Shown here one piece after another: positions 11,094-45,709 of a stretch of 64,000 nucleotides of DNA; the stretch's first letter is position 1; the number at the start of each line of letters is the position of its first letter. This DNA is from Polyangiales bacterium (GTDB lineage Bacteria; Myxococcota_A; Polyangia; Polyangiales; Ga0077539). The stretch is taken from contig JBGARZ010000022.1 of the NCBI GenBank assembly GCA_044229975.1, forward strand, positions 1-64,000, read 5' to 3'. Both the position numbers and the translations under genes were made by a program. Under the pieces are notes generated by a model that was given only the letters and a program-made list of their open reading frames with translations, did not search any database and had not been told where the DNA came from.

Positions 11094-12002
11094 ATGAACA
11101 CCGCCCCCCGTGACGCTCCGCTGCGCGCCATCGCCTTCATGCTGGCCGCCGCCTCGTGCTTCGCCTTCATGAACGCCCTCGCCCGCGCGATGCGCCACCT
11201 GCCGTGGCCCATGCTGGCCTTCTCGCGCGCCGCGCTGGGCCTCTGCGTCGCGCTCACCATCGCCCGCACCCGCGGCGCGTCGCTCGCCATCGCCGACCGC
11301 CGCGTCATGTGGCGCCGCAGCCTCGCGGGCACCACCAGCATGCTCTGCACCTTCTTCGCGCTCACGCACATGCCGCTCGCCGACGCGACCGCGCTGCTCA
11401 ACACCACGCCCCTCTTCATCGCCGCCCTCGCCTGGATCACCCTCCGCGAGCGCCTCTCCCCGCGCGTTCTCGTCGCCCTCGCGGTGGCCTTCGCGGGCAT
11501 CCTCCTCGTGGAGCGCCCTGGCCTGCGCGGTGACGGCTTCGCGGGCCTCGTCGCCCTCGCCGCAGGGGCAGGCAGCGCGGTCGCCATGGTCTCGCTGCGT
11601 CGCCTCTCGGGCGAGACCCCGGAGGCCGTCGTGGTGCACTTCTCCGCCACCGCCACCGGGGTGCTCGGCGCGCTCTCGCTCGGCTGGGTCGCCACCCGCG
11701 GCGCGCCCGCGGGAATCACCGCCCGCGAGCTCGTCGGCCTCCTCGCCATGGGGGCGCTCGCGACGCTCGGGCAGCTCTCGCTGACGCGCGCCTACGCCCT
11801 CGACAAGGCCGCGCGCGTTGGGGCCGCCGGGTGGTTGCAGATCGTGATCGCCCTCGGCATCGACGCCGTGGTCTTCGCCCGCTGGCCGGAGGCGCCGACG
11901 CTCGGGGGCATCGCGCTGCTGCTGATCGCAGGGGTGCTGCTGGTGTCGGACGCGCGCCGCGACGAGCGGGCGCTACGGGAGTCAGTCCCGGTCGTGCGAT
12001 GA
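11094..12002 (+). CDS. DMT/EamA family transporter
   Basis: About ten hydrophobic segments; MPLADATALLNTTPLFIAALAWITLRERL. Confidence 0.88.
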   Translation: MNTAPRDAPLRAIAFMLAAASCFAFMNALARAMRHLPWPMLAFSRAALGLCVALTIARTRGASLAIADRRVMWRRSLAGTTSMLCTFFALTHMPLADATALLNTTPLFIAALAWITLRERLSPRVLVALAVAFAGILLVERPGLRGDGFAGLVALAAGAGSAVAMVSLRRLSGETPEAVVVHFSATATGVLGALSLGWVATRGAPAGITARELVGLLAMGALATLGQLSLTRAYALDKAARVGAAGWLQIVIALGIDAVVFARWPEAPTLGGIALLLIAGVLLVSDARRDERALRESVPVVR

Positions 12003-13798
12003 TCCGCGCCGTGGAGCCACGGCGGAGACACGCTCGACGGCGCCGATCGGGCGTGCGCCTCGCACTCGTCGCGGGTCTGCTCTCGCTGGCGCCGCTGCGC
12101 TGCTCGGACCCTGCCCCCACCACGGGGGACGACGGTCCGCCCGTCGCCCGCTTCGCCGCGCCGCAGGGGCGCTTCGAGATCGAGCACGACGCGCTCCCCG
12201 GCACGCCGTCTTCGGTCTCTCTCGGCGACTGCGACGGCGACGGTCGCCTTGACGTCGTGACCCTCGGAATGGGCACGCCGCCCGTGATGCGACAGGACGC
12301 CGACGGGCGCTTCGTGGCGGTGCCCGAGGGGCCCAGCTTCGACCGGCCCGCCGGCGCGGCCTTCCTCGACTACGACCACGACGGGGTGCTCGACCTCGTG
12401 CTCGTGGGCGCCCGGGATGTCCGGGTGGGCCTGTCCCGCGGCCTGGGCGGTTGCCGCTTCCGCGCGGTCGAGGAGATCGCGCCCGGGACGACCGGAACGG
12501 CCGGGCAGGTGATGGTCGCCGACGTCGACCTCGACGGCCTCGAAGACCTCGCCGTCAACCGCCGTGATGACACCGGCGGCGCCTACCGTCTGCTCCTCGC
12601 GCGCGGCGACGGGAGCTGGGAGGAGACACGGCCGCCGACGCCGCCCCGCCCGGGCCATCACAGCCCCGGCTACCAGACCTTCGCGATGCACTTCACCGAC
12701 GTCGACGGCGACGGCGCGCAGGACCTCCTCGGCCTCATCGATCAGGGCGCCTCGTGGTTCGCGTGGGGCGCGTCCGCCGATGCGCCGCGCTTCACGACCG
12801 ACGTCGCGCTCTCGGAGCAGTTCGTGCGGGCGTGTCCGATGAGCGTGTCGGCCCTCGACTTCGATCGCGACGGCCGCACGGACTGGTTTCTCTCGGGCGT
12901 GACGCGGGCCAGCCTGCTGTACCGACTGGAGGGGCCGCGGCGCCTCGTCGATGCCTCCGGACCGGCGCACATCCGCGGCGTGGGCGAGTCCTTCGCGTGG
13001 GGTTCCTTCGCCCTCGACGCCGACCTCGACGGCTGGCAGGACCTCCTCGTCCTCCTGCAACCACCGGACTCCACGCAGGGCATCCCGTGGCCGGTCGCGC
13101 TGTGGACCAACCAGCGGGATCGCACCTTCTTCGACTGGGGCCCCGACCTCGTCCCCGTGAGCACCGTGGCCCAGGGCCTCGCGTGCGGCGACCTCGCGAG
13201 CGACGGTCACATCGGCTGCTTCGTCATGGACGCCCGCGGCGCCGTGCTCATGCGCAACCGGGTCCAGCCCGCCGGACACTGGCTCGGCCTGCGGCTCCGC
13301 GGGACCGTCTCCGCCAGCGCCGCGACCGGCGCGATCGTGTCCGTGGAGGGCGCCTCGCCGCCGCAGGTCGTGAGGGTCAACGAGCAGGTGAGCGTGACCG
13401 GCCACCACGCGCCCGGCGTTCTCATCGCGACCGGCGCGCGCACGCAGGTCGACGTCACCATCACCTGGCCCAGCGGGCTCCGTCAGACCCTGCGCGGACT
13501 CCCGTCCGATCGCTACACCGACGTGACGGAGCCGGTCGCGCTGTCGGTCTCGCGCCGCGTCGCCCCGGCCGACGGAAGCACCCGCGTGGAGGTCATCGTC
13601 GACGCGCGCTCCGTCGGCGCCACCCGCGTCGCGCTCGAACGCAACGGCGCGGGCACCTGGGACGGCGCCGGCACCACCGACGCCGACGGCAGGCTGCACC
13701 GGGCGCTGGTGGCGCCCACTTCGGCGGGCTCGGCGCGCATCGAGCTGAGCCTCGACGGGGTGGCGCTGAAGGTGCGGCCGATCGTTCGCTTCCGCTGA
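11999..13798 (+). CDS. CRTAC1-like FG-GAP repeat plus ASPIC/UnbV protein
   Basis: Repeated DxDGDGxxD motifs; WLGLRLRGTVS...GAIV...ITWPSG. Start uncertain. Confidence 0.8.
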   Translation: MIRAVEPRRRHARRRRSGVRLALVAGLLSLAPLRCSDPAPTTGDDGPPVARFAAPQGRFEIEHDALPGTPSSVSLGDCDGDGRLDVVTLGMGTPPVMRQDADGRFVAVPEGPSFDRPAGAAFLDYDHDGVLDLVLVGARDVRVGLSRGLGGCRFRAVEEIAPGTTGTAGQVMVADVDLDGLEDLAVNRRDDTGGAYRLLLARGDGSWEETRPPTPPRPGHHSPGYQTFAMHFTDVDGDGAQDLLGLIDQGASWFAWGASADAPRFTTDVALSEQFVRACPMSVSALDFDRDGRTDWFLSGVTRASLLYRLEGPRRLVDASGPAHIRGVGESFAWGSFALDADLDGWQDLLVLLQPPDSTQGIPWPVALWTNQRDRTFFDWGPDLVPVSTVAQGLACGDLASDGHIGCFVMDARGAVLMRNRVQPAGHWLGLRLRGTVSASAATGAIVSVEGASPPQVVRVNEQVSVTGHHAPGVLIATGARTQVDVTITWPSGLRQTLRGLPSDRYTDVTEPVALSVSRRVAPADGSTRVEVIVDARSVGATRVALERNGAGTWDGAGTTDADGRLHRALVAPTSAGSARIELSLDGVALKVRPIVRFR

Positions 13799-32989: not shown

Positions 32990-33226
32990 GCGGCGGCGGA
33001 GTTCGCGTGCCGCCCATGGGTCGGAGTGCGGTCGCTCACTCCGGGCTATTTCACGTGGTCACCTCGCTGCGCGAGGTTGCAGGGACTCACAACCGACCAT
33101 GGATGGTCGATGGGTTGTTCATTGAAACCAACGCTGCAACCTCGCGCAGCGAGGTGACCACGTGAAGTAGCCCGGAGTGAGCGACCGCACTGCGACTCAT
33201 GGGCGGCACGCGAACTCCGCCGCCGC
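32990..33226. mobile_element. Long inverted-repeat element (MITE/REPIN-like): 93-bp arms, 51-bp spacer
   Basis: 32990-33082 is the reverse complement of 33134-33226 with 3 mismatches. Mobility is inferred. Confidence 0.6.
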
Positions 33227-33239
33227 TCCGAGCAGTCTC

Positions 33240-35348
33240 CTACGAGCACTCCCCGAGGGAGCTGCCGTTGATCTGGATGCTCACGCCGTTGATGGAGCGT
33301 GAGGTGCAGCAGTCGTCGATGTGGGTCAGCACGATGCGGTTGCGGCCCGTCACGAGGAAGCGCGACAGGTCGGTGGTGGCGCCGTCCGAGCCGAGCAGCA
33401 CGTACGACGACGGGTCGACGATGCCCGCCGGGTAGCGCGAGTTGTGCACCGTGATGCGAACGCCATCATCGACGGAGCCAATGCGCACGATGAGGCTCGA
33501 CACCGCGTAGCCCGCCGGGATGTCGAAGAAGGTCTGGAAGAACGTGAACTCCCCGCCGTTGAGGCACGTGCACACGCGCCCGCACAGCGCCGACCCCTCC
33601 GAGAACCCGATGTCCGTACGCTCCACCGGCGTCCACGACCCGTCGGCCTCGTTGGGAATCGACGCCAGCTCGTACTCGCCCGCGTCGCCGTGCACCGAAA
33701 ACGTCCGACCGAAGCACACCGGCCCGCTCGCGCGGCTGATCTGCCAGGGCGACCCCGAGGCCGTGAGGCACGGCAGGCAGCCGGTGTTCACCTCGCCCAC
33801 GCACGCACCCCAGTTCGAGGCGCCGCCCGAGGCCGTGCAGGTCTGCGTGCCGCCGTGGCAGCGCCCGACGCCCTCGGTGCCCGCCGCGCCCGTGTAGCAG
33901 GGGCGCGTGGTGGTCGCGACGCACGCGCAGCGCGTACCCGCCCCCGAGCACGATCGATCGACGCCGTCGCAGGTGTCCGTCGTGGGCGTCACCTCGCCGT
34001 CGCAGCCGCCCCACGCCGACGTGCTCCCGCTCACGATGCACTGTTGGGTGCCCGCGCGGCAGAGGCCCACGCCATTCGTCGAGGGGAGCCCGCTGTAACA
34101 AGACCGCGTCGCCCCCGCGAGGCAGGTGCACGACGCGGTGCTGCCCGTGCACGCGCGGTCGACGCCGTCGCAGCGGTCGGCCACCGGGGTGACCTCGCCC
34201 TCGCACGCGCCCCACACCGAGCCGGCGCCGGTGAAGAGGCAGCGCTGCGTTCCGCCGCGGCAGAGGCCGACGCCCCGTGTCCCGGCCGGGCCCGAGTAGC
34301 ACTCGCGCATCGTGCCGGTGGTGCACGCGCAGGGCGACGTGGTGCCCGTGCACGAGCGATCGACGCCGTCGCAGGTGTCGCTCGTCGGCGTGACCTCGCC
34401 CACGCACGCGCCCCACGCCGTGCGCCCCGACTCGGTGCGCCCGCACACCTGCGAGCCCGCGCGGCAGGCGCCCACGCCCATCGTCGCCGGTGCGCCCGTG
34501 TAGCAGGAGCGACTGCGCCCGAGGATGCAGTCGCAGTCGGCTTCGGGCATGCCGTTGCAGGCGCGGTCGACGCCGTCGCACTGGCTCGTGGTCGGGGTGA
34601 CCTCGCCCTCGCACGCGCCCCACACGGCGCCGGTGGCGGTCATCGTGCAGGTGGAGGTTCCGGCGCGGCAGGCGCCCCGACCGGCGGTGCCCGCGGCCCC
34701 CGAGTAGCACGAGCGGGTCATGCCCGGCGTGCACGCGCAGCCCTCGTCGATGACGCCGTTGCAGCGCCAATCGCGCCCCTCACCACAGCGCACCATCTGG
34801 GGCGAGCCCGCGCCCATGCACGCGCTCCACGTCCCGAACTCGCCGGTGCCCATGCACTGCTGCATCCCGAAGTTGCAGACGCCGCGTCCGGCCTCGGCGG
34901 GAGCGCCCGGGTAGCACCGCTGGCTCTGACCTGGGAGGCACGGGCACGACTCGTCGAGGCGACCGTCGCAGTTGTCGTCGAGGCCGTTGTTGCAGATCTC
35001 CATCGGCACGCAGCCCGTGACGGGCGGGCTCACGACGGCGCCGTCGGGGAGCTGCACCGCGCCGTCGCCGAGCACCACGCTGCCGTCGGGGTAGCCCGCG
35101 GCGCCGTCGGTGGGCGCGACGCTTCCGTCGTTGGGGGTGACGCCGCCGCCGTCCATGGTCGACGCGCCGTCGGTGGGAGCGCCCGCCTCGCGGTCGGCGC
35201 GGCCGTTGGCGTCGGTGCGGCCGAGGTCGGTGCCGGTGCCTCCATCGCCGGGGTCGTGCACCGCGTAGTCCGAGTCGAAACAGCCCCCGAGGGAGAGCGC
35301 CACGAACCACAAGGCCCACCATCGCGACGACATCGGCAAGTACCTCAC
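33240..35348 (-). CDS. Cys-rich repeat lipoprotein (MopE-related / myxobacterial Cys repeats)
   Basis: EICNNGLDDNCDG and about six CYxGxxGTxGxGxCRAGTQxC...WGACxGEVTP...CDGVD repeats. Confidence 0.85.
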   Translation of the reverse strand: MRYLPMSSRWWALWFVALSLGGCFDSDYAVHDPGDGGTGTDLGRTDANGRADREAGAPTDGASTMDGGGVTPNDGSVAPTDGAAGYPDGSVVLGDGAVQLPDGAVVSPPVTGCVPMEICNNGLDDNCDGRLDESCPCLPGQSQRCYPGAPAEAGRGVCNFGMQQCMGTGEFGTWSACMGAGSPQMVRCGEGRDWRCNGVIDEGCACTPGMTRSCYSGAAGTAGRGACRAGTSTCTMTATGAVWGACEGEVTPTTSQCDGVDRACNGMPEADCDCILGRSRSCYTGAPATMGVGACRAGSQVCGRTESGRTAWGACVGEVTPTSDTCDGVDRSCTGTTSPCACTTGTMRECYSGPAGTRGVGLCRGGTQRCLFTGAGSVWGACEGEVTPVADRCDGVDRACTGSTASCTCLAGATRSCYSGLPSTNGVGLCRAGTQQCIVSGSTSAWGGCDGEVTPTTDTCDGVDRSCSGAGTRCACVATTTRPCYTGAAGTEGVGRCHGGTQTCTASGGASNWGACVGEVNTGCLPCLTASGSPWQISRASGPVCFGRTFSVHGDAGEYELASIPNEADGSWTPVERTDIGFSEGSALCGRVCTCLNGGEFTFFQTFFDIPAGYAVSSLIVRIGSVDDGVRITVHNSRYPAGIVDPSSYVLLGSDGATTDLSRFLVTGRNRIVLTHIDDCCTSRSINGVSIQINGSSLGECS

Positions 35349-35418
35349 TGGGGCCGATGGTAGGCACGCCTCGCCAACGCGCGAAACCTACGAGCGCGCG
35401 ATGGTGACGGGTGGGATC

Positions 35419-35575
35419 TACGCCGCGGCGTCCACGCGGGGCACACCGGTCGGGCCCGCAGTGCGCGGGTCCTACGCCGCGGCGTAGGGCAAGCGCAGTG
35501 GTCGGGTTCCTCCTCACCGGGCCTACGCCGCGGCGTCAGCGCGGCGCGCGCCGGTCGGGCCCGCAGTGCGCGAGG
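35419..35575 (+). repeat. Three degenerate copies of the 53-54 bp REP-like unit
   Basis: tacgccgcggcgt palindrome three times, with ccggtcgggcccgcagt; same unit as 43541-44341. Confidence 0.85.
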
Positions 35576-35621
35576 CCACACTGCCAGTCCCGCTCGCACG
35601 AAGCGGCCCTACGTTGGGCTC

Positions 35622-35954
35622 ATGAGCAGCGAAACCAACGCGGTGACCTGGAAGGACGGCTCCCGGTGGAGCACGGGGGCGGGCGTATTCCGACGACTGA
35701 CCGGACGGCTCGACGGGCTGCGCGACACGGTGGTGGGCTTGGGGCCGGTGCTCGATCGGTGGAAGGCACGGGGCGCGGGGGCCGTCGACGTGGACGACTT
35801 CGCGCCGACGGAGGACGACCGCGCAGTGCTGACCGCGGCGCTGGCGCGGGTGGTCGAGGACGACGACGGGGACGCGAGCGAGGAGGGGAGGGCGGTGGGC
35901 ACCGAGGCGCGGGCGCTGCACGAGTTGTTCATGACGGATGTGACGAAGGGGTAG
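35622..35954 (+). CDS. Hypothetical protein
   Basis: 110 aa ORF whose stop lies inside the truncated attC. Confidence 0.55.
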   Translation: MSSETNAVTWKDGSRWSTGAGVFRRLTGRLDGLRDTVVGLGPVLDRWKARGAGAVDVDDFAPTEDDRAVLTAALARVVEDDDGDASEEGRAVGTEARALHELFMTDVTKG

Positions 35955-35995
35955 CGGCGGAGGCGGGGGCAGTCGGCACCAGCGGCTTGTTGGGC
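35941..35995 (-). other. Truncated attC site (R''-L'' half only)
   Basis: Minus strand GCCCAACAAGCCGCTGGTGCCGACTGC; the L'/R' half is missing. Confidence 0.75.
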
Positions 35996-36041
35996 GGGGC
36001 TCCACTCTGTCCCGAAGGCATCCTCAAAACCGAGGCGTTCG

Positions 36042-36479
36042 TCAGCCTGCAACGTCGGGTTCGGGAGAATCCACCACGAGATCCGGATGAAGAGTGTGCG
36101 TTTCCCAGAAGTAGGGGTGTTCCCGAAGGACCGGCGTTGGCTTGATGGTCCGCTGTGCGGGGCGCATGCGACTCTTGAATCGCTCGTCGATGGGTGTGAC
36201 AGCTGCGCGAAGGCGCGCTGCTGTCTCGGCGCTTGCATGCTCGATGGAGAGTTGAATCCATACGCGGCAGCCAATCTCGTGGTTGTACTCGGATGGGTCC
36301 CAGTTCGACCAGTCGGTGTCCACGAACTGAGCCCACTGGGAGAAGTGGTCATGGAGTGTCGCTCCAACGTATGCGTCTACAAGAGTCGGGTGCTCGCCCC
36401 AGCGCTGAATCGCCACTCGAATTGCGGCCAGGTCGGTCAGGGTAATCGACACGTCGAACTCTGGTTCTCGTACTTGCAC
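36042..36479 (-). CDS. Integron cassette 6 gene, hypothetical
   Basis: Single ORF between two attC sites; GTG start just after the R' box. Confidence 0.65.
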   Translation of the reverse strand: MQVREPEFDVSITLTDLAAIRVAIQRWGEHPTLVDAYVGATLHDHFSQWAQFVDTDWSNWDPSEYNHEIGCRVWIQLSIEHASAETAARLRAAVTPIDERFKSRMRPAQRTIKPTPVLREHPYFWETHTLHPDLVVDSPEPDVAG

Positions 36480-36494
36480 CGTTGCCTCGATTTT

Positions 36495-36585
36495 GCCTGA
36501 TGGCTGGCCGCCGCGCCGCCGCAGCGGACGCGACGGGGTAGTGGCGGGTGAAGCGACCGCGGTCGGCACCATCGGCTTGTTGGGC
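36495..36585 (-). other. attC site (degenerate R')
   Basis: 91 bp; R'' GCCCAAC, R' decayed to ATCAGGC. Confidence 0.8.
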
Positions 36586-36597
36586 AGGGCGCGCATC

Positions 36598-37116
36598 TCA
36601 AGTCTCGGCGACCGCTGGGAGAGCATTGAAGTCCCTGATCGACGACTCGACCAGATTCGCCAGAGCGATCCATTCACCTGGGACAATCGCACCGTGCCAC
36701 GACAATCGCGATCTCGCTTGCCCTACAAATGCAGCCACCTCGTAGCGCACTCCGTCGCAGGCTTCTGCCGGTATTCGTTGTGTTCGTATGGGGACCAAAA
36801 GACCGTCAATCGATCCCACCAACTTCTCGACGATCTCCGGGTCGATCATCACCCGAGAAAATCCAAAAACGAAGTCGTCCTCGGGCTCTGCGGAAAGAGA
36901 ACGGTACAGCCGCAGTACATCCTCTCTGTAGATTTCATAGCATACGGTAGGTTCGAACGAGGGTCTATATACAAGTTGAAGCAGGCGTTCGCCCGAGCCA
37001 GGAAAGCACCACCATTCGTCGTGGATATGCCTCGGCGTGGTCGTCGCGATCCGCTTCTCGCTCTCGAACTCCGCGAGGCGCCTCTCAAGTTTTCGCTGCG
37101 CCTTAGTACTCGGCAT
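36598..37116 (-). CDS. Integron cassette 5 gene, hypothetical
   Basis: 172 aa, lower GC, stops just before attC; RPSFEP...CDGVRYE. Confidence 0.75.
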   Translation of the reverse strand: MPSTKAQRKLERRLAEFESEKRIATTTPRHIHDEWWCFPGSGERLLQLVYRPSFEPTVCYEIYREDVLRLYRSLSAEPEDDFVFGFSRVMIDPEIVEKLVGSIDGLLVPIRTQRIPAEACDGVRYEVAAFVGQARSRLSWHGAIVPGEWIALANLVESSIRDFNALPAVAET

Positions 37117-37195
37117 CGCTACTCTCCCAATCTACTGCCGTCCCGCAGGCAGAGCGATCTCATGGGACGCCTACAATCGGCGGCGACGAGGCTCC

Positions 37196-37286
37196 GCCCA
37201 ACGGCAGGCCTCTGTGCCGCCGCAGCGGGCACGGCTGGTTGGCAGAGGGTGAATGGGGAGCGGTCGGCACCATCGGCTTGTTGGGC
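37196..37286 (-). other. attC site
   Basis: 91 bp; GCCCAAC...GTTGGGC. Confidence 0.9.
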
Positions 37287-37313
37287 TCACCGCTCTTTGG
37301 TAGGCTCCCCGAC

Positions 37314-37508
37314 ATGACTGCCAGGAAGATCGAAAACCGCCTCCCCGACGACCACCCCGCCTTGTTGGCTGCACGGCGTGCCCCGATCGAGTCCGAAACG
37401 GATGAGGAACGTGAGGTGGTCGAGGCTGCGATGAACTCGGGACAACTCGTGCCTGGGTCGATCGTGACGGCGGAACTCGCGCGGCGCGCACGTCGGCCCC
37501 ATGGCTGA
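37314..37508 (+). CDS. Putative antitoxin (cassette 4)
   Basis: 64 aa acidic ORF overlapping the downstream RelE-like gene. Confidence 0.6.
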   Translation: MTARKIENRLPDDHPALLAARRAPIESETDEEREVVEAAMNSGQLVPGSIVTAELARRARRPHG

Positions 37509-37746
37509 TTTGGAGATTCTCTGGACCCCCGCTGCGATCTGGGCGCTCCGCAGCTTTCACTGGCGTGAGGGCGAAGTCATTGACGCCGCTGTGCAGAAGT
37601 TTGCTCGGACGGGCGAGGGGCATGTGACTCGAATTGACGGGTCGCTGAGCCGGATGCGCCTCTACGTGCCGCCATTCACCGTGCGGTTCAGCCTGGACCA
37701 AGACAAGGGCGTACTCGTGGTCGCTTGGGTGTGGCGACAAGACTGA
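37501..37746 (+). CDS. RelE/ParE-like toxin (cassette 4)
   Basis: ILWTPAAIWAL...IDAAVQKFARTGEGHV...RLYVPPFTVRF...VLVVAWV fits the RelE layout. Confidence 0.65.
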   Translation: MADLEILWTPAAIWALRSFHWREGEVIDAAVQKFARTGEGHVTRIDGSLSRMRLYVPPFTVRFSLDQDKGVLVVAWVWRQD

Positions 37747-37903
37747 CGAGCAGGCTGTCGATGCCCTGGCCTCGCCGCTCGGTGCTTGGTTTGTCGTCAT
37801 CCCGCTGCCCTCGTTGATCGCAGCCCGCTGTCCGCAGTCGACTGCCTGTTGCTCGTTGACCGCGACTCGCAGCTTGCTCTTCCACAGCCCGTCGCTCGTC
37901 GCT

Positions 37904-37994
37904 GCCCAACGGCCTGCCGATGTGCCGCCGCAACGGGTGCAGCGGGTTGGTGGTGGGTGAAGCGGGAGCGGTCGGCACCATCGGCTTGTTAGAT
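37904..37994 (-). other. attC site
   Basis: 91 bp; R'' ATCTAAC, L'' CCGATGGTGCCG / L' CGGCACATCGG, R' GTTGGGC. Confidence 0.93.
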
Positions 37995-38153
37995 GTGCCG
38001 GATATCGCTCGCCGCTCACCCGTTTGCCGGAACCCGTTACTCGTCGTCTCGTCTGTCGCCTCGGCCGTTGTCACGCCACTGCTCTCACTGGCCGATGCAT
38101 GGAGTCTTTGGGAGAGATTGCTGATTGCAGGCCGGAGAGGTGACACAGCATGG

Positions 38154-38429
38154 CTACACTCGATACTCCAGCCCAAGGAGATTCATCGCCTCTTTCAATG
38201 CGATCGGTCTAGCGGCCTTCGTCTGCTCATCAACGAAGAGAAAGTTACTTGTACCAAGCGGCATATACGCCATGTCGCGATCCACCGTCCAACGAGCGTC
38301 AGCGTATGGAGCGACCCAACCGCCCTCTACCTTGGTGTAGTCCTCCTTCCGCGTCGCGAGCCTGTCATCGATATAGTCCACTCGGCCCAGAGCTTCTTCA
38401 GCAAGTCGATACGCCTCGTCTACATCCAT
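38154..38429 (-). CDS. Cassette 3 gene, YrhB/Imm35-like small protein
   Basis: MDVDEAYRLAEEAL...GWVAPY...PLGTSNFLFVDEQT resembles the YrhB/Imm35 pattern. Confidence 0.5.
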   Translation of the reverse strand: MDVDEAYRLAEEALGRVDYIDDRLATRKEDYTKVEGGWVAPYADARWTVDRDMAYMPLGTSNFLFVDEQTKAARPIALKEAMNLLGLEYRV

Positions 38430-38719
38430 CACGGCACCTCGTCCCTTGACTCCCTCACAAGCCCCACGACCGCTCTTCACACACCGCGTGAGGCGTATTT
38501 CTTCCTCGCCTTTTCCAAATAGATGCACCAGACGTCACCGCCGGCCGCCTGCTCGCTGGGGTCTTTCGTCGTTCGTCGTCTGGACCGTTGTCACGCCGCT
38601 TTCCTCATTGACCGATGCTCGCGGTCGCCACTCGTTGTCCGTTGCCCACAGCCCATTGCTCGTTGGCCGTGGCCCAATCGTTGCCTTTTCGCCGCCCGTA
38701 GCTCGCTGCCCTGTGCTCT

Positions 38720-38810
38720 ATCTAACGACTGGCCGATGTGCCGCCGCAGCAGACGCGGCGGGGTGGTAGTGGGTGAGGTGGCGGCGGTCGGCACCATCGG
38801 CTTGTTGGAC
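38720..38810 (-). other. attC site
   Basis: 91 bp; R'' GTCCAAC, R' GTTAGAT. Confidence 0.93.
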
Positions 38811-38845
38811 ATCTCGGCAGACGCGGGGTGTATGTTTGCAGCCAG

Positions 38846-40573
38846 CTATTCCGCAGACCACCTCGGGACAAACGACGTTGCCGGGACAGTCATCAGCTTC
38901 ATCAACTCCTTGCCGTTCGGCCACCCCGGAATCATTGTCGCAACGGTGCTCGCTGCGAGGCTTTCAGCATTTACACTGGCGACCGCCTTCAGCCAGTTCA
39001 TTGGACTGAACAACTTTCCGCTTGGTTGTGTATTGATCGCATTCTGAAGAGCATTGTCCAAGCAGCTGGCAGCCAGCGTCAGGATCTCGGTCGGCTGCTG
39101 AGCCGCCTTCAACGTCGCGGCGGGCTCCACAACGAGTTGCTGCTTGTTGGCTCTGGCAATAATAGCCGACACAACAAACAGCACATGATACTTAGCATAG
39201 CCCTTTCCTGCCTTTATCGTATCGTCGAACGTAAAATTGGACCACAGATCCTCAATGGCGTTCAGCCACGTCTGGAGGGCAAGCATTGACGCCGGATTGT
39301 AGCCAGTACGAAAGAGAGTTTTGTAGTGATCATCAAACAATCGTTTCTCGTTATACGAAATATTCGGCCTCTGGCAGTGCCAGGCCATTAGCATTTTTCC
39401 GAGTATGGCTGTGTCGATGGTCTTTGCCGCATCTCTATTGGCAGGTCGTTCTTCTCCTCTCTTGGTGAGGAGATAGCCGTCCGGGTATTGAATCTCATAC
39501 GCTCTCTTCAGTCCCACCAAGACCTTGTCGTTGCTCTTAAGATCTCGTGGCTTTACCTGAGTCTGCGAGTTCGTGTTGATGCTGATTCGATCCCCAAGCG
39601 CTCGGTCAGGAATCTCGTAAAGCCGAAAGAGAATTCGCGCATCGGAGGCTTCCGACGAGCGCACTCGCTCCGAGACCGAAAAGATCGTTGAAAGCGACTG
39701 GCATCCGTTCACGACGCTCAGTCCCTTGATGTTCATGGTTTTCCCGTCGTCGCTTATGGCGACGGAATCACATAGTGCGGTAACGCCATTGTGGTAGAAG
39801 AAAAATTCCCTCACTCGATCGCCATTGTTGATGGTGTCTTTGAGTGCCCTGTTTACCTTGTTCATTCCGAGCGACTGACGGACGTTCTTGCGAAAAAGAC
39901 GCCCGTCCTTGATCCCAGGCAGCCGTAGACATTCCTTCAAAGGCAAGACGGCTAGTACCGTCTGGGCAGAGCCTAGCTTTGTGACCAATGTGCTAGCAGG
40001 ATCAACGATCATCGCATGGTCCAATGACGGAAGTTCCTGCGCTTCAGCCTCGGCGAGCCGCAGCTTGAGAACATCTGTGTCGATGAGATGGAGCCCTGCT
40101 TCGAAGTCGTCAGATTTTTCCAGATTTTCCGCAAAGGCTTTCAAGTCTCCCCGCGCAGCGTCGGTCAATGCGCCCGTCGTGATCAACTCGAAGTCCACTC
40201 GGTAGTCGTCCTCCAGAGCTCGTCGAACCGCTTCGAGTTTCACTTTGAGTTTGTCGTTGGCATCCTTTTGCAAGGACGGAAGGTCTTGAAGTCGCATCCA
40301 CGCGCCTAGCACTTCACGAAGCGGCTCCCCATCGACGGGGCTCCCGTCGATGAATTTGCCTTGAATAACGATCACTCTACGCTCTTCGTCCTCAACGATG
40401 ATGGCGTCGATCTGCTTGTCATTGGCGCCGTCGGTGATGTCGTCCCGCGTTGCGACCGCATCACGAAGCAGTACCCTTCGCAGATGCCAGGCAACAAAAC
40501 GCTGGCCATCGTTGGCGAAATTCTGCTGATAGTAACTACCGTCCGTGATCTCACGCTTGATCTGATCGATCAT
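38846..40573 (-). CDS. AIPR (abortive infection phage resistance) family protein, cassette 2
   Basis: ITDGANDKQIDA, IQGKF, LFRKNVRQSLG, FFFYHNGVT, VVNGCQS, NTNSQTQVKPRDLKSND. Confidence 0.9.
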   Translation of the reverse strand: MIDQIKREITDGSYYQQNFANDGQRFVAWHLRRVLLRDAVATRDDITDGANDKQIDAIIVEDEERRVIVIQGKFIDGSPVDGEPLREVLGAWMRLQDLPSLQKDANDKLKVKLEAVRRALEDDYRVDFELITTGALTDAARGDLKAFAENLEKSDDFEAGLHLIDTDVLKLRLAEAEAQELPSLDHAMIVDPASTLVTKLGSAQTVLAVLPLKECLRLPGIKDGRLFRKNVRQSLGMNKVNRALKDTINNGDRVREFFFYHNGVTALCDSVAISDDGKTMNIKGLSVVNGCQSLSTIFSVSERVRSSEASDARILFRLYEIPDRALGDRISINTNSQTQVKPRDLKSNDKVLVGLKRAYEIQYPDGYLLTKRGEERPANRDAAKTIDTAILGKMLMAWHCQRPNISYNEKRLFDDHYKTLFRTGYNPASMLALQTWLNAIEDLWSNFTFDDTIKAGKGYAKYHVLFVVSAIIARANKQQLVVEPAATLKAAQQPTEILTLAASCLDNALQNAINTQPSGKLFSPMNWLKAVASVNAESLAASTVATMIPGWPNGKELMKLMTVPATSFVPRWSAE

Positions 40574-40731
40574 ATTTTTTCCTCCGGTGTGCTTGCGAGA
40601 GTGTCAGAGCCGACTGCCGTTGTTCAAGAGTCTTCGTGTCGCCTGCGTCGTAATCACCACATTGATCGCTTTTCTTCGCTCGTGACCCGCCGTTTGCCAC
40701 CTCACAGCCGGCCGCCCGCTGCTCTGTGGCT

Positions 40732-40822
40732 GTCCAACGGCTGGCCGATGTGCCGCCGCAGCGGGTGTAACGGGTTGGCATTGGGCGAGTTGGCGGCGGT
40801 CGGCACCATCGGCTTGTTGGGC
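40732..40822 (-). other. attC site
   Basis: 91 bp; R'' GCCCAAC, R' GTTGGAC. Confidence 0.93.
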
Positions 40823-40870
40823 GGTCTTGCCACAGAGTCCTGATCTCCAGATCGACGAAGCCGCGCAGTA

Positions 40871-41653
40871 TCACTTAGTCCCGAGTGCTCGATCCCACAA
40901 CAAGACTTGTGTTTGAATGGCTCCGGAGTCACCACCAGACAGCATGTCAAATTCTTCATTTGACATCGCGGCGATTTTTTCTCTAATAAGCTGATCTTCA
41001 GAAAGCAATCGCCGGTTCTGAATTGCTGAATTTGATCTTGCAAAGCCCAGCATACAGCGGACAACTCCATCAGCGAGCGTTTTCCGATCCGCGGATCGCA
41101 ACCAAGCGATCAGGCGGTTCAGATCGGCTAACGAATCAGACGTCGGACGCATGCCCGATAAAAGAAAAAGACCTTCGTAATGATACCACAACACGTCATC
41201 AAAAGAGCAGGACGGCCGTTGCCAATCTTGATACCGCACGGAACACAGCTCTTCGTAGAAGAGCCGAGAAGCCTCGAGTCGTTGCGCAACCCGATCAGCC
41301 GAACAGGGCGCCGTGTGAGCAGTTACCACGCTGATGGTGCCGTAGGCCGTGTCCAATGAGTACTTATCGAACTCGTGGCCGAACGGACGCCGATCCACGT
41401 CCTTTCGTACGGACTGAATCGCCGCCTTCATCTCTCCCCAGAGATACGCTCGCCACTTCGGACCGTCCCAACTGAAGTCGCTCGTCGCGTCGATCACAAC
41501 GATCTGATCGGCCGCAACCGGTTGGACAGGGATCTGGGGGAATTGCCCTGACTTCTTGTACGCTCGCGCCCATCGCATGCCCTCGCGCCGCACCGCCTGC
41601 CGAACAGCAGGAGCGGTTCCATAGAGGAAATCTGGAATTTCCAAGCACTTCAT
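40871..41653 (-). CDS. Integron cassette 1 gene, hypothetical
   Basis: 260 aa, low GC, AGAGGA RBS; ends just before the first attC. Confidence 0.8.
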   Translation of the reverse strand: MKCLEIPDFLYGTAPAVRQAVRREGMRWARAYKKSGQFPQIPVQPVAADQIVVIDATSDFSWDGPKWRAYLWGEMKAAIQSVRKDVDRRPFGHEFDKYSLDTAYGTISVVTAHTAPCSADRVAQRLEASRLFYEELCSVRYQDWQRPSCSFDDVLWYHYEGLFLLSGMRPTSDSLADLNRLIAWLRSADRKTLADGVVRCMLGFARSNSAIQNRRLLSEDQLIREKIAAMSNEEFDMLSGGDSGAIQTQVLLWDRALGTK

Positions 41654-41719
41654 CGCGTCCTCTCTTGGCTAGAATACCGCATCGATGAGCGGGTCAGCGA
41701 GTTCATCGGGGGGCGTCAC

Positions 41720-41763
41720 GCCCAACTCTGTCCGCCCAACATCTCATTCACCCGCCGCCCAAC
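41720..41763 (-). other. Candidate attI region
   Basis: Three GTTGGGC cores (minus strand 41720-26, 41734-40, 41757-63) between the first cassette and the intI remnant, complementary to cassette 1 R''. Confidence 0.55.
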
Positions 41764-41774
41764 CTCACTCTTCT

Positions 41775-41959
41775 GCTGTTCGCCCGCCGCCGTCACTGCC
41801 GAACCCCATTTCGTCCGTTGTTCGCCCGCCGCCGTCACTGCCGAATCCCCATTCGTCCGTGGTTCGCCCGCTGCCGTCACTGCCGAACCCCGTTCGTCCG
41901 TTGTTCGCCCGCCGCCGTCACTGCCGAACCCCATTCTCCCGTTGTTCGCCCGCCGCTGT
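41775..41959 (+). repeat. Tandem repeat, 41-42 bp unit, about 4.4 copies
   Basis: gttcgcccgccgccgtcactgccgaaccccattcgtccgtt starting at 41778, 41820, 41862, 41903 and 41944 (partial). Confidence 0.92.
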
Positions 41960-41989
41960 CCACCCCTCCGCGCCCGCGCCGCCCTTCTG

Positions 41990-42385
41990 CTCGCCCATGC
42001 CCGCGGCGCCCGCGCCGCTCCGATCGAATCTGCCCATCGACGCCAACCCGCGGATCCCGCCATCGGCCGCGTCGAAGTCCACCGCCCCCACGCGCCTCGT
42101 GTGCCAACACGGCTTCCCCATATCGCGTCCCTCTGCCGCCGTCGCGACCTGCACAGCAACAACCCTCCACAAGGCGCCCCACGATGTTGCTGCGCCCGGA
42201 GGCAGCGATCGTCGCTCCATCTGTCGCCGCGTCGTCACCGATGACCCCAATGAACCCCGAACGACCCTCCGCACCATCCAGGAGCCGCCAGGCCACGAGG
42301 ACCGCCGCACCACGATGATCGCCCCTCCACCATGTTGTCGACCGCAGCTCGCCAGGCGTGGCGAGCCCGCTCGACCGCCGGTCGC
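41990..42385 (+). pseudogene. intI: Integron integrase C-terminal remnant, multiply frameshifted
   Basis: Across frames: ADPAIGRVEVHRPHAPR, QHGFPISRPS, RRRDLH, LHKA...RRSICR, LRTIQEPPGHEDRRTTMI, HVVDRSSPGVASPLDR. These parallel the IntI motifs DL..G.G.V.LP.AL, WQWVFP, RRHH, RTVQELLGH.DV.TTMIYTHV...GV.SPLD. Confidence 0.8.
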
Positions 42386-42516: not shown

Positions 42517-43323
42517 CTATGCCGTCCCCTTCTTGTCGTCCGTCCCTTCGGTCTTCCCCTTCGCCTTCGCCTTCTTCTTCCCGACCGCCCTCCCGGGCCG
42601 CCGGAACCGCCGCGCCTCCGCCGCGTCCTCCCGCAGCGCGAAGCGCCCTGCGGTGCACAGCCGCGCCGCGATCGCATCGACCTGCGTCCAGGCCGCGTTG
42701 CGCAGTCGTGTGTGCAGCTTGTTCGCTTCGGCGTCCGGCGCTGACACCTTCGGCAACGCCGCCGCCGCCTTCGTCATCCGCTTCCGCGCTGCGCCCAGCT
42801 TCGAGAAGCGCACCAACGACGCCTTGTTCTCCTCGCAGAACGCCTCAAGCGCCCGCACATCATCGTGCAGGTCGGCGAGCCCGTCGCCGCGCAACACCTC
42901 ACGGCACCACGCGCGCTTCCTGGCGTCCTTGCGAAACGCGAAGCGAATGACCGCCACGACATCGCCTTCCGCCGCGCGCGCTTCGTCGTAGAGCGTCTTC
43001 TGCTTGGGCGTGAGGTTCGACGTGCCCACCTGCCGCCGCGTGTGCTCGTCCTGAAGCGTGGTCAGCAGCGCCAGCGCCCCCGAAAACCGCCCGATCTCGC
43101 CCTCGGTCAGATCGTCGTCGGGGTCCATCGGCGTCGCCAGCAGGGCAGCCTTGTGGGGCCCGACCGCGGCCTCCAGCGCCTGCGCCCACGTGATGTACGC
43201 CGGAACATCCCGATTGGGCCGCTTGATCTCCCCTGCGGGAACAGCCTCCAACTCCGACCGCAGCGCCGCCCCGACATCCCGGGGCACGCGGCTCCCACCC
43301 GTCTTCGTCTTCCGCTCCGCCAT
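42517..43323 (-). CDS. Hypothetical helical protein
   Basis: 268 aa from MAERKTKTGG, GGAGG RBS, Lys-rich tail. Confidence 0.75.
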   Translation of the reverse strand: MAERKTKTGGSRVPRDVGAALRSELEAVPAGEIKRPNRDVPAYITWAQALEAAVGPHKAALLATPMDPDDDLTEGEIGRFSGALALLTTLQDEHTRRQVGTSNLTPKQKTLYDEARAAEGDVVAVIRFAFRKDARKRAWCREVLRGDGLADLHDDVRALEAFCEENKASLVRFSKLGAARKRMTKAAAALPKVSAPDAEANKLHTRLRNAAWTQVDAIAARLCTAGRFALREDAAEARRFRRPGRAVGKKKAKAKGKTEGTDDKKGTA

Positions 43324-43386
43324 GTGCAGACCTCCAGCAACGACCGTATCAGCGGCTGCCAGAGCGCAGCAACGCCTACATGGGTC

Positions 43387-43540
43387 GGTGAGCGGGTCGA
43401 CCAGTGTGGTGAGCGGGTCGACCGGTGTGGTGAGCGGGTCGACCAGTGTGGTGAGCGGGTCGACCAGTGTGGTGAGCGGGTCGACCAGTGTGGTGAGCGG
43501 GTCGACCAGTGTGGTGAGCCCGTCGGACAACTCGGTGAGC
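43387..43540 (+). repeat. Tandem repeat, 21-bp unit, 6 near-perfect copies plus degenerate copies
   Basis: ggtgagcgggtcgaccagtgt at 43387, 43408, 43429, 43450, 43471 and 43492. Confidence 0.95.
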
Positions 43541-44341
43541 CGCGCACCGATCAGGCCCGCAGTCACGGGGGCCCACGCCGCGGCGTCAGCGCGGCGCGCA
43601 CCGGTCCGGCCCGCAGTCACCGGGGCTACGCCGCGGCGTCAGCGCGGCGCGCATTGGTCAGGCCCGCAGCCACCGGGGCCACGCCGCGGCGTCAGCGCGG
43701 CGCGCATTGGTCAGGCCCGCAGTCACCGGGGCTACGCCGCGGCGTCAGCGCGGCGCGCACCGGTCAGGCCCCAGTCGCCTGCCGTCCGTTGATCGATGTT
43801 GGTCCGGACTGTGACTGCAGGCCCGACCGTTGCGCGCCGCGCTGACGCCGCGGCGTGGGCCCCGGTGACTGCGGGCCTGACCGTTGCGCGCCGCGCTGAC
43901 GCTGCGGCGTAGCCCCGGTGGCTGCAGGCCCGACCGTTGCGCGCCGCGCTGACGCCGCGGCGTAGCCCCGGTGACTGCGGGCCCGACCGGTGCACGCCGC
44001 GCTGACGCTGCGGCGTGGCCCCCGTGACTGCGGGCCTGACCGGTGCGCGCCGCGCTGACGCCGCGGCGTGGGTCCGCCGACTGCGGGCCTGACCGTTGCG
44101 CGCCGCGCTAACGCTGCGGCGTAGGGCCGGTGACTGCGGACGTGAGCGTTGCGCGCCGCGCTGACGCCGCGGCGTGGGCCCCCGTGACTGCGGGCCTGAC
44201 CGGTGCGCGCCGCGCTGACGCCGCGGCGTGGGCCCCCGTGACTGCGGGCCTGACCGTTGCGCGCCGCGCTGACGCCGCGGCGTGGGTCCGCCGACTGCGG
44301 GCCTGACCGGTGCGCGCCGCACCGACCCCGCGGCGTGGGTC
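43541..44341. repeat. REP/BIME-like array: 53-54 bp unit, about 4 forward then about 10 inverted copies
   Basis: Unit contains the palindrome acgccgcggcgt. Forward block 43541-43775, reverse block 43811-44341. Confidence 0.92.
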
Positions 44342-44350
44342 CGCCGCCGC

Positions 44351-45709
44351 TCAGTACCCGTCGATCACGCTGAGCGCCTCGTCGTGGGCCGAGTTCACCG
44401 CGGCCTGCGGGGCGGCGGAGGTCGCGCCCGAGGTCGGCGACGTCATCGCGGGCAGCGCGCGGCGCATCGAGCTCACCCGCCCGATCTGCTCCCGGTACGC
44501 GCGGCTGTTTCGCGTCGAGGCGTCGCTGCGCGCCCGGTCGAGCAGCGCGTCGAGCTGCCGCTCGGCGGCGGCGACGTTGCCGCTGCGGGCCTCGCGGATG
44601 GCGGCCACGGTGCCGACGGCGAGCTGCACCTGCGCGGCCACTGCCTCGACCTCCGCGCTACGACCGCCCTCGATCTCCGCCGCATCGCTGCTCGCGTGGG
44701 CCCCCAGAAACACATCCCGCTCGTAGCGCTCGGAGGGGGCGGCCGGGTCGTTCCAGGCGAGGCGGGCGTCGACGAGCTCGATGGGCGAGCCCGCGCGGTG
44801 CGCCGGAACGTTGAGCCTCACGATGAGGTCCCGCGTCGCCCCTTCGGTGATCTCGCCGAGCTGCACGGTGATGCCCGCGTCGGTGCGCGCGGCGTCGTGT
44901 CCGAGCACCGCCTCGATCTGCACATCGGGCCCGGGGCTCAGCGTCACCACGGCGTTGCGGGCGATGACGCGCTCCATGCGCAGCACCTCGGTGCGAAACG
45001 CCGTCGCCACCGCCGAGGAGTCTTCGACGTAGTGGAAGTGTCCGCCCGAGCGCTGCGCGATCGCGCCCATGAGGGTCTCGTTGTATTCGAGCCCGAGGCC
45101 GAGGGACGTGATGGTGATCTGGTGGGCCCCGGCGCTCGCCGCCATCGCCTCGATGCTCGCCGCGTCCGTGTTGGGAACCCCATCCCCCAACAGCACCACG
45201 CGGTTGATGCCGCCGGTGTTGAGGTGCGCGGCGACCTGCTCGATGCCGAGGCGCAGGCCGTTGGCCATGTCGGTGGTTCCGCGGGCGCGCATCGCGCTGA
45301 TGCGCTGGCGGGCCGCGGCGCGCTCGCTCGCGTCGAGGACGGCGGAGGGGAAGATGACCTCGGCGCGCGAGTCGAAGGTGACGACGGCGAGGCGGTCGCC
45401 GTCGCGCATGGCGTCGACGAGCGCGAGGCTGGCGGCGCGGGCGTCGTCGATGGGCCGACCCTCCATGGAGCCCGACGTATCGATGACGAGGCCGACGTTG
45501 ATGGGCGGTCGGATGGTCGGGTCGACGGCGGCGGTCGCGAGGCGTAGCCGCGCAACGAGCGTGCTGCGCGCCCCGGCGGGGACGAAGCGGTTGCCGAGGG
45601 CGCCGTCGAGGGAGAGGGCTTGCGGGGTTCGTGCGTGGCGCTGGGCGCCGGCGCAGGCCGCGAGGGAGGAGAACAGGGCGAAGACGAAGAGCAGCAATGG
45701 GCGTCGCAT
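44351..45709 (-). CDS. VWA domain lipoprotein
   Basis: VIDTSGSMEG MIDAS motif, GTTDMANGL, VVLLGDG. Confidence 0.9.
   Translation of the reverse strand: MRRPLLLFVFALFSSLAACAGAQRHARTPQALSLDGALGNRFVPAGARSTLVARLRLATAAVDPTIRPPINVGLVIDTSGSMEGRPIDDARAASLALVDAMRDGDRLAVVTFDSRAEVIFPSAVLDASERAAARQRISAMRARGTTDMANGLRLGIEQVAAHLNTGGINRVVLLGDGVPNTDAASIEAMAASAGAHQITITSLGLGLEYNETLMGAIAQRSGGHFHYVEDSSAVATAFRTEVLRMERVIARNAVVTLSPGPDVQIEAVLGHDAARTDAGITVQLGEITEGATRDLIVRLNVPAHRAGSPIELVDARLAWNDPAAPSERYERDVFLGAHASSDAAEIEGGRSAEVEAVAAQVQLAVGTVAAIREARSGNVAAAERQLDALLDRARSDASTRNSRAYREQIGRVSSMRRALPAMTSPTSGATSAAPQAAVNSAHDEALSVIDGY

Follow-up and report, generated by a model that had tools for sequence, protein, structure and literature searches.

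Clusters of attC sites without an integron integrase (CALINs) occur about as often as complete integrons do, and how they arise is still an open question (PMC4889954; 10.1101/2022.02.28.482270). CALINs, CALINs with an intI pseudogene and mobilisation in trans have all been described or proposed (PMC4889954; PMC9668308; 10.1101/2025.06.18.660453). Here, we describe an array in the genome of an uncultured Polyangiales bacterium (assembly GCA_044229975.1; 10.0 Mb, 71% GC, 39 contigs), located in the first 64,000 nt of contig JBGARZ010000022.1 (C28), the whole of which is called the window. The element is a genuine integron array of six cassettes that has an attI of its own and an integrase gene that is dead; being a CALIN with an intI pseudogene, it is of a known kind, the novelty being the multi-attI layout of many short attI-headed arrays together with one integrase. 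Comparison of the sequences suggests that it is probably a satellite array, one of several, likely filled by an integrase whose gene lies at another place in the genome.

The CALINs of Cury et al. 2016 (PMC4889954) are similar in having at least two attC sites, ~5-6 cassettes and no functional intI nearby, with IntI encoded elsewhere, and excision of such cassettes by the IntI of the genome has been proposed (PMC4889954). In that study, an intI pseudogene was present at 15 of 279 CALINs and attI was searchable for classes 1-3 only, whereas here nearly all array heads have an attI that can be identified, and satellites could therefore be entry points and not donors only. The integrons of Xanthomonas (10.1101/2025.06.18.660453) share homogeneous lineage-specific attC sites, frequent intI inactivation and extra CALINs with our genome; however, their intI sits at one ancestral locus (ilvD) and their CALIN positions are fairly conserved, while here intI loci vary between relatives, some genomes have matches on four contigs and the window array is absent from congeners. 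Vibrio sedentary integrons have the same IntI family, homogeneous attC sites and toxin-antitoxin cassettes (PMC13108822), but in a single very long array instead of seven short ones. In the dissemination through attG sites and single attC sites lacking integrases (SALINs), IntI likewise puts cassettes away from its own locus (10.1101/2022.09.11.507474); attG sites are unlike attI, whereas the present arrays start with a family-conserved attI. The attC bulges are of the form T-N6-C where T-N6-G is usual, and T-N6-C sites have recombined in assays (PMC3053210). IntI1 is also able to move attI-bounded cassettes (PMC12901181). In Myxococcota, 192 complete integrons have been counted (10.64898/2026.09.14.751636), and the supplements of that work may list this lineage. 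In the literature covered, which leaves out most subscription papers, no paper was found to describe this attC/attI family or a genome with many attI-headed arrays.

The array, its attI and the dead integrase gene

The GC content drops to 52-65% across 36-42 kb of the window, where five 91-nt repeats (starts 36495, 37196, 37904, 38720 and 40732) each read RYYYAAC...GTTRRRY on the minus strand. The R'' and R' boxes are intact in four of these five full attC sites, the R' at 36495 being decayed. A further half site is broken within its variable terminal part and, as comparison with congeners shows, joined to the stop-codon end of a 110-aa host gene. An earlier note on this DNA, made from the letters alone, had reported the five palindromes, the half copy and the boxes, and the same coordinates were recovered here. 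The bottom (+) strand of attC folds into an R box, an unpaired spacer and an L stem with two bulged bases, the extrahelical T69 and C75/76. Over 34 attC copies of the genome, with a mean column identity of 86%, 95% of 782 cells were paired (slid controls 21-53%). Folding energy is weak as evidence for attC (z -0.16 to -2.78, bottom strands below -2 in two of five), and covariation adds little because the L stem is nearly invariant. An Rfam scan of the window gave no matches; a lineage-specific attC model was built from this family and used for the searches.

The attC sites are real recombination products. Genome-wide, the upstream R' is the complement of the downstream R'' in 21 of 28 intact-core junctions, while the site's own R' is so in 9 of 28, and junction shuffles gave a mean of 7.2 with 0 of 10000 reaching 21. 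The five attI-proximal junctions of the window, attI/cassette 1 included, all match at 7/7. This signature bears out the attC/cassette architecture with six cassettes put forward in the note. The genes between the repeats are indeed of lower GC at third codon positions (GC3; 0.58-0.73 for cassette open reading frames (ORFs), 0.92-0.94 for three flanking host genes), but they are not single throughout, as cassette 4 holds two.

The predicted attI was confirmed at the array head, between the intI remnant and cassette 1, with the core TGAGAT/GTTGGGC and its crossover in GTT at 41740. The GTTGGGC of this site complements the attC1 R'' exactly, and homologues of the core adjoin intact intI in relatives. 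The divergent intI remnant was likewise recovered, both by tblastn and by an intI DNA profile (Table 1). It has internal deletions and frameshifts, its catalytic motifs are lost, and no enzyme can be made from it. When the genome was searched with TIGR02249, nine matches were returned, none of them at this remnant, and a CALIN call by standard tools, as the note had foreseen, is therefore plausible. With two or more attC sites and no integrase found by TIGR02249 on C28, the array falls under the definition of a CALIN; of a complete integron it has the attI with GTT crossover between intI and cassette 1, but only the decayed 3' half of the gene that should adjoin it. A sigma-70-like site (9/12) at 41962-41933 points into the array, two such sites being found against 1.8 expected by chance, and the promoter and terminator scan of the array stayed at chance level.

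An intact integrase and attI-headed arrays in the genome and its relatives

The loss of integrase function claimed in the note holds for the local gene but not for the genome, since an intact IntI is encoded on contig C4. Free of stops, it reaches 415 bits with TIGR02249 (cut-off 265), and its alignment to VchIntIA (2A3V, E 5.5e-79) spans the full length. The attC profile gave 43 matches in the genome, forming seven clusters and three single sites. Eight attI sites align, of which six directly head clusters, one heads the single C14 site and one lies at the C2 end; the last probably heads the array at the C23 start, judging from the first cassettes shared with C19. C2 ends 130 bp past attI and C23 starts inside a cassette, both resembling the C19 array head (84-99%). 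The C2 end and C23 start may belong to a single array interrupted at a repeat, with C19 being either its recent duplicate or a partly collapsed copy. These shared first cassettes, possibly partly collapsed repeats, could also be taken as a sign of an assembly or binning artefact in this metagenome-assembled genome, as could its 39 contigs and 3% contamination. Such an explanation is scarcely credible, since the arrays lie within 150-570-kb contigs of host GC, their flanks are syntenic with congeners and the pattern recurs in other genomes. A contig from a public run also equals 42141-42310 of the remnant with 0 differences, though it possibly comes from the same source and is not independent.

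The attI sites fall into two types, one common to C4, C19 and the C2 end and the other to the window, C2, C20, C23 and C14. A held-out attI model, trained on eight intI-adjacent sites of other genomes only and with matches taken to E 5, found 10 matches in the genome, all at array heads, and covered seven of the eight heads. An earlier model had included the eight sites of this genome, so that its eight own-genome loci are circular, and an exact attI pattern gave no match in 31 genomes, missing the known own-genome sites too. The C20 array also has an intI remnant, and the two start at intI nt 484 vs 488 (order C28, C20). Because a tree of 18 intI 3' halves fails to place the remnants (window branch 1.22; 8 of 15 inner branches open), the shared start is the sole argument for their common ancestry. 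A strand-biased substitution pattern in the C20 remnant was dropped, the alignment being unreliable in C-rich sequence. Three cassettes are common to different arrays of the genome at 91-94%. Comparison of 19 array heads revealed no common gene or element able to move the platform.

Alternatively, rearrangement might have split a single large integron into these arrays, or they might be clusters that grew up at secondary attG sites; both routes have been described for CALINs (PMC4889954; 10.1101/2022.09.11.507474). The C20 array does lie at a synteny break, and the single degraded attC sites at C39:237338 and C8:36221 have no attI core upstream. However, either process would give attI-less arrays, while here a family-type attI opens each array, and intI remnants are present in two. 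Overall, this origin is very improbable. For the window array it is refuted, since an attI and an intI remnant stand at the head; for the C39 and C8 sites, which are candidate secondary-site insertions, it is possible.

The attC family occurs in 14 of 18 same-family (Polyangiales-type) genomes and in none of 12 genomes of other families, in keeping with the homogeneous, lineage-specific attC sites of the note. An exact-pattern attC scan of the species collection yielded 55 stretches, 52 of them in records titled Polyangiales, Myxococcota, Myxococcales, Myxococcaceae or Deltaproteobacteria and three on short contigs of two other taxa. An intI was found in 14 of 30 family genomes, on at most four contigs each. 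When four intI loci were compared with this genome, none shared flanks with C4, and two shared flanks mutually. Among 20 array regions of relatives, five were cut by contig ends, one was undecided and one had a nearly full-length broken intI; an attI match lay upstream of the first attC in 12 of the 13 remaining integrase-less arrays or sites, two of the 12 with different intI fragments. In relative G002, an intact IntI, 89% identical to the C4 IntI (3' half), adjoins a window-type attI.

Several arrays have peculiar heads. On C19 (433729-435814, L014), a tyrosine recombinase and an IS91-family (Y2) transposase lie between attI and the first attC; the recombinase is not an integron integrase, yet could be mistaken for one. 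In G002, a ~1.3-kb insertion with inverted ends (L025 on C5, ~11430-12740) splits the attI next to the intact intI, parting integrase from array. In the G002/G004 arrays L077, L078, L081 and L082, attI-like units are repeated in tandem and bear a promoter-like motif, TTGACA...TAACGC; L081 and L082 have 1.4 kb of upstream DNA in common (94%).

Age of the cassettes and origin of the array

In the intI remnant, 67 of 255 columns (26%) that are invariant in five other family intI genes, including that of G004, which has a stop, are substituted. In the five window attC sites, 9 of 255 conserved positions, defined from 56 sites of other genomes, differ (3.5%; from attI outward 0, 2, 0, 2 and 5). Together with the unameliorated GC3 and the intact ORFs, this difference indicates that the cassettes are much younger than the loss of the local intI or that the sites have been selected via continued use, and in either case an integrase in trans is needed. 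The cassettes thus likely arrived after the death of the local intI.

A VWA-domain host gene flanking the array has an orthologue in six of eight congeners, and no attC, attI or intI lies beside it in any of the six. Its neighbour is the 110-aa gene, 2-3 bp away, in three congeners, a 702-aa gene in two and an unrelated gene in one. The whole 8.4-kb block is missing at the clean empty site of three congeners, and the window junctions showed no insertion sequence (IS), recombinase or target duplication. The C20 array is missing in four of four congeners (at most 1 kb examined). The absence of an array in all six congeners indicates that the locus is not an ancestral sedentary site and, with intact intI loci that are not syntenic across relatives, speaks against the sedentary integron of the note. 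Its model, a long-resident integron built by its own integrase that was later lost, accounts for the canonical order of attI, divergent intI remnant and homogeneous attC sites, and in-place inactivation of intI has been described for Xanthomonas (10.1101/2025.06.18.660453). We consider it improbable, given the empty congener sites, the uneven decay of intI and attC, the GC3 and intact ORFs of the cassettes and the intact IntI of the genome.

We propose instead that a platform of attI and intI would have reached the intergenic site after the congener split, whereupon the 5' half of intI would have been deleted and the rest decayed. IntI acting in trans may have kept inserting cassettes at attI by attC x attI recombination at G/TT, the newest lying nearest attI, while the distal attC sites decayed and the toxin-antitoxin cassette would have stabilised the array. 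The loading enzyme may be a sister integrase since lost, and an integrase from elsewhere in the genome may still act on the array. In favour of the proposal are the cassettes common to different arrays of the genome, the attI at 12 of 13 integrase-less arrays or sites of relatives and the window-type attI beside the G002 IntI, which resembles the C4 enzyme.

Several points weigh against this proposal. The attI sites have been described as specific to their cognate integrase (PMC2095811), and the C4 attI (GCCTAC-TGAGAT/GTT) differs from that of the window (GGTGAA-TGAGAT/GTT). The window attI was the sole head missed by the held-out model and its proximal box is ~8 nt shorter than in sister sites. 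None of the six window cassettes recurs in the other arrays of the genome, and the 91-94% shared cassettes could be independent acquisitions from congeners, one of them being carried by a congener at 91%. The low attC divergence could also stem from selection or gene conversion among ~40 copies. In public sequencing, where a single DNA run shared 0.11 of the words and no RNA run was listed, no direct excision or insertion was seen; the joints of that run at 85% likeness mixed in other organisms and repeats and were not used.

Some of these points would fit an unlikely course of events, in which a relative supplied attI, dead intI and the six cassettes in a single block that has stayed inert, the C4 integrase excising cassettes at most. 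The entire block is missing at the congener empty site and also holds a non-cassette gene and repeats, the window attI is eroded, and no window cassette is shared within the genome. Yet the age gap between remnant and cassettes would still demand loading in trans, only in the donor, and the seven other attI-headed arrays as well as the 12 of 13 in relatives would need the same history. A satellite array loaded in trans is therefore our favoured reading.

Cassette genes, surroundings and significance

Table 1. Features of the array and its flanks (window coordinates)
Feature	Position	Strand	Remarks
Left flank, 110-aa host gene	35622..35954	+	abuts VWA gene in three congeners
attC6, 5' half (R'' + L'') only	~35935..35995	-	nhmmer model positions 1-62, E 4.3e-5
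Cassette 6 ORF, ~145 aa	36042..36479	-	function unassigned; start codon uncertain
attC5	36495..36585	-	R' decayed to ATCAGGC; 5/51 conserved positions changed
Cassette 5 ORF, 172 aa	36598..37116	-	function unassigned
attC4	37196..37286	-	
Cassette 4 gene 1, 64 aa	37314..37508	+	inverted relative to array; overlaps gene 2
Cassette 4 gene 2, 81 aa	37501..37746	+	predicted RelE/ParE-fold toxin
attC3	37904..37994	-	
Cassette 3 ORF, ~91 aa	38154..38429	-	weak Imm35 likeness (PF15567, E 0.0057), under curated cut-off
attC2	38720..38810	-	
Cassette 2 ORF, 575 aa	38846..40573	-	AIPR-domain protein; PF10592 E 5e-32; PADLOC AbiU E 2.7e-36; GC 0.53
attC1	40732..40822	-	matches family consensus at 51/51 conserved positions
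Cassette 1 ORF, 260 aa	40871..41653	-	function unassigned; two other homologues, 63-66% identity
attI simple site, GGGTGAA-TGAGAT/GTTGGGC	41734..41756	-	crossover at 41740
attI accessory box	41757..41976	-	five tandem 41-42-bp copies; most sister attI sites have two
intI pseudogene, 3' half only (gene nt ~484-949)	41971..42380	+	tblastn E 1.7e-7; intI DNA profile E 7.5e-22
268-aa gene, non-cassette	42517..43323	-	host-like GC3 0.89; weak PQLLE-family match, E 0.047
Rest of block: 21-bp tandem repeat (7 copies) and inverted arrays of 53-bp REP-like repeat (REP, repetitive extragenic palindrome)	43366..44343	.	
Right flank, VWA-domain host gene	44351..45709	-	

The protein of cassette 2 is AbiU-like by its profile matches, which makes its gene a candidate phage-defence gene. 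In cassette 4, the 64-aa product had no family match and is likely an antitoxin, judging from its position, size and RelE-fold neighbour. The 81-aa protein has 11 full-length homologues (70-91% identity), and its model (predicted local distance difference test, pLDDT, 92) has RelE 1wmi as the top Foldseek match (template modelling (TM) score 0.83, E 4e-5); a metagenome scan with this protein found no locus. A possible promoter of this inverted pair was noticed by eye at 37278-37306 (+): TTGTTG, 17 nt and TAGGCT with TG upstream, 7 nt before the antitoxin-like ATG and with its -35 inside attC4. The promoter scan did not report it. The cassette 1 protein matched no family above cut-off, nor did those of cassettes 5 and 6 in Pfam, NCBIfam, PADLOC and PHROGs, and none of eight proteins matched PHROGs.

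The 268-aa gene belongs to the block missing from the congener empty site. Repeats at 35413-35590 and 43366-44343 bracket the array, the 53-bp repeat arrays standing head-to-head, and the core of the 53-bp repeat has 76 genome matches in 33 2-kb bins. Farther to the left, an intergenic 93-nt inverted repeat at 32990-33226 (97% complementary, 51 nt apart) resembles a miniature inverted-repeat transposable element (MITE) or REP. The 702-aa gene at 33240-35348 (-), kept in congeners, encodes a cysteine-rich protein of ~67-aa repeats with a weak MopE-type metal-binding motif.

In other integrase-less arrays, front cassettes encode GmrSD-domain (L012:4755-6600) and RelA/SpoT-domain (L015:2495-3748) proteins and a large AAA-type protein (weak match; L014:3272-5623), and further ones encode ParE, SMI1/KNR4 and a protein kinase. 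Several array front positions hold defence-like genes (AIPR/AbiU, GmrSD, RelA/SpoT-domain).

By itself, the window array is an ordinary integron remnant. Its value lies in the genome around it, in which many integrase-less arrays are found alongside a matching, intact integrase and an attI family that can be defined, so that dead remnants and live capture sites can be told apart by direct tests. From uncultured Polyangiales, the lineage also adds a T-N6-C attC family and a pool of cassettes, among them candidate phage-defence genes. Going further, and only tentatively, this bacterial family may run a distributed integron, whose attI platforms would be copied repeatedly to new chromosomal sites, shed their integrase and stay live as parallel entries for one shared IntI. 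If so, a promoter-proximal first position would exist in each of eight short arrays rather than only once, and many CALINs from elsewhere could be of this kind, having escaped recognition because their attI is not searchable.

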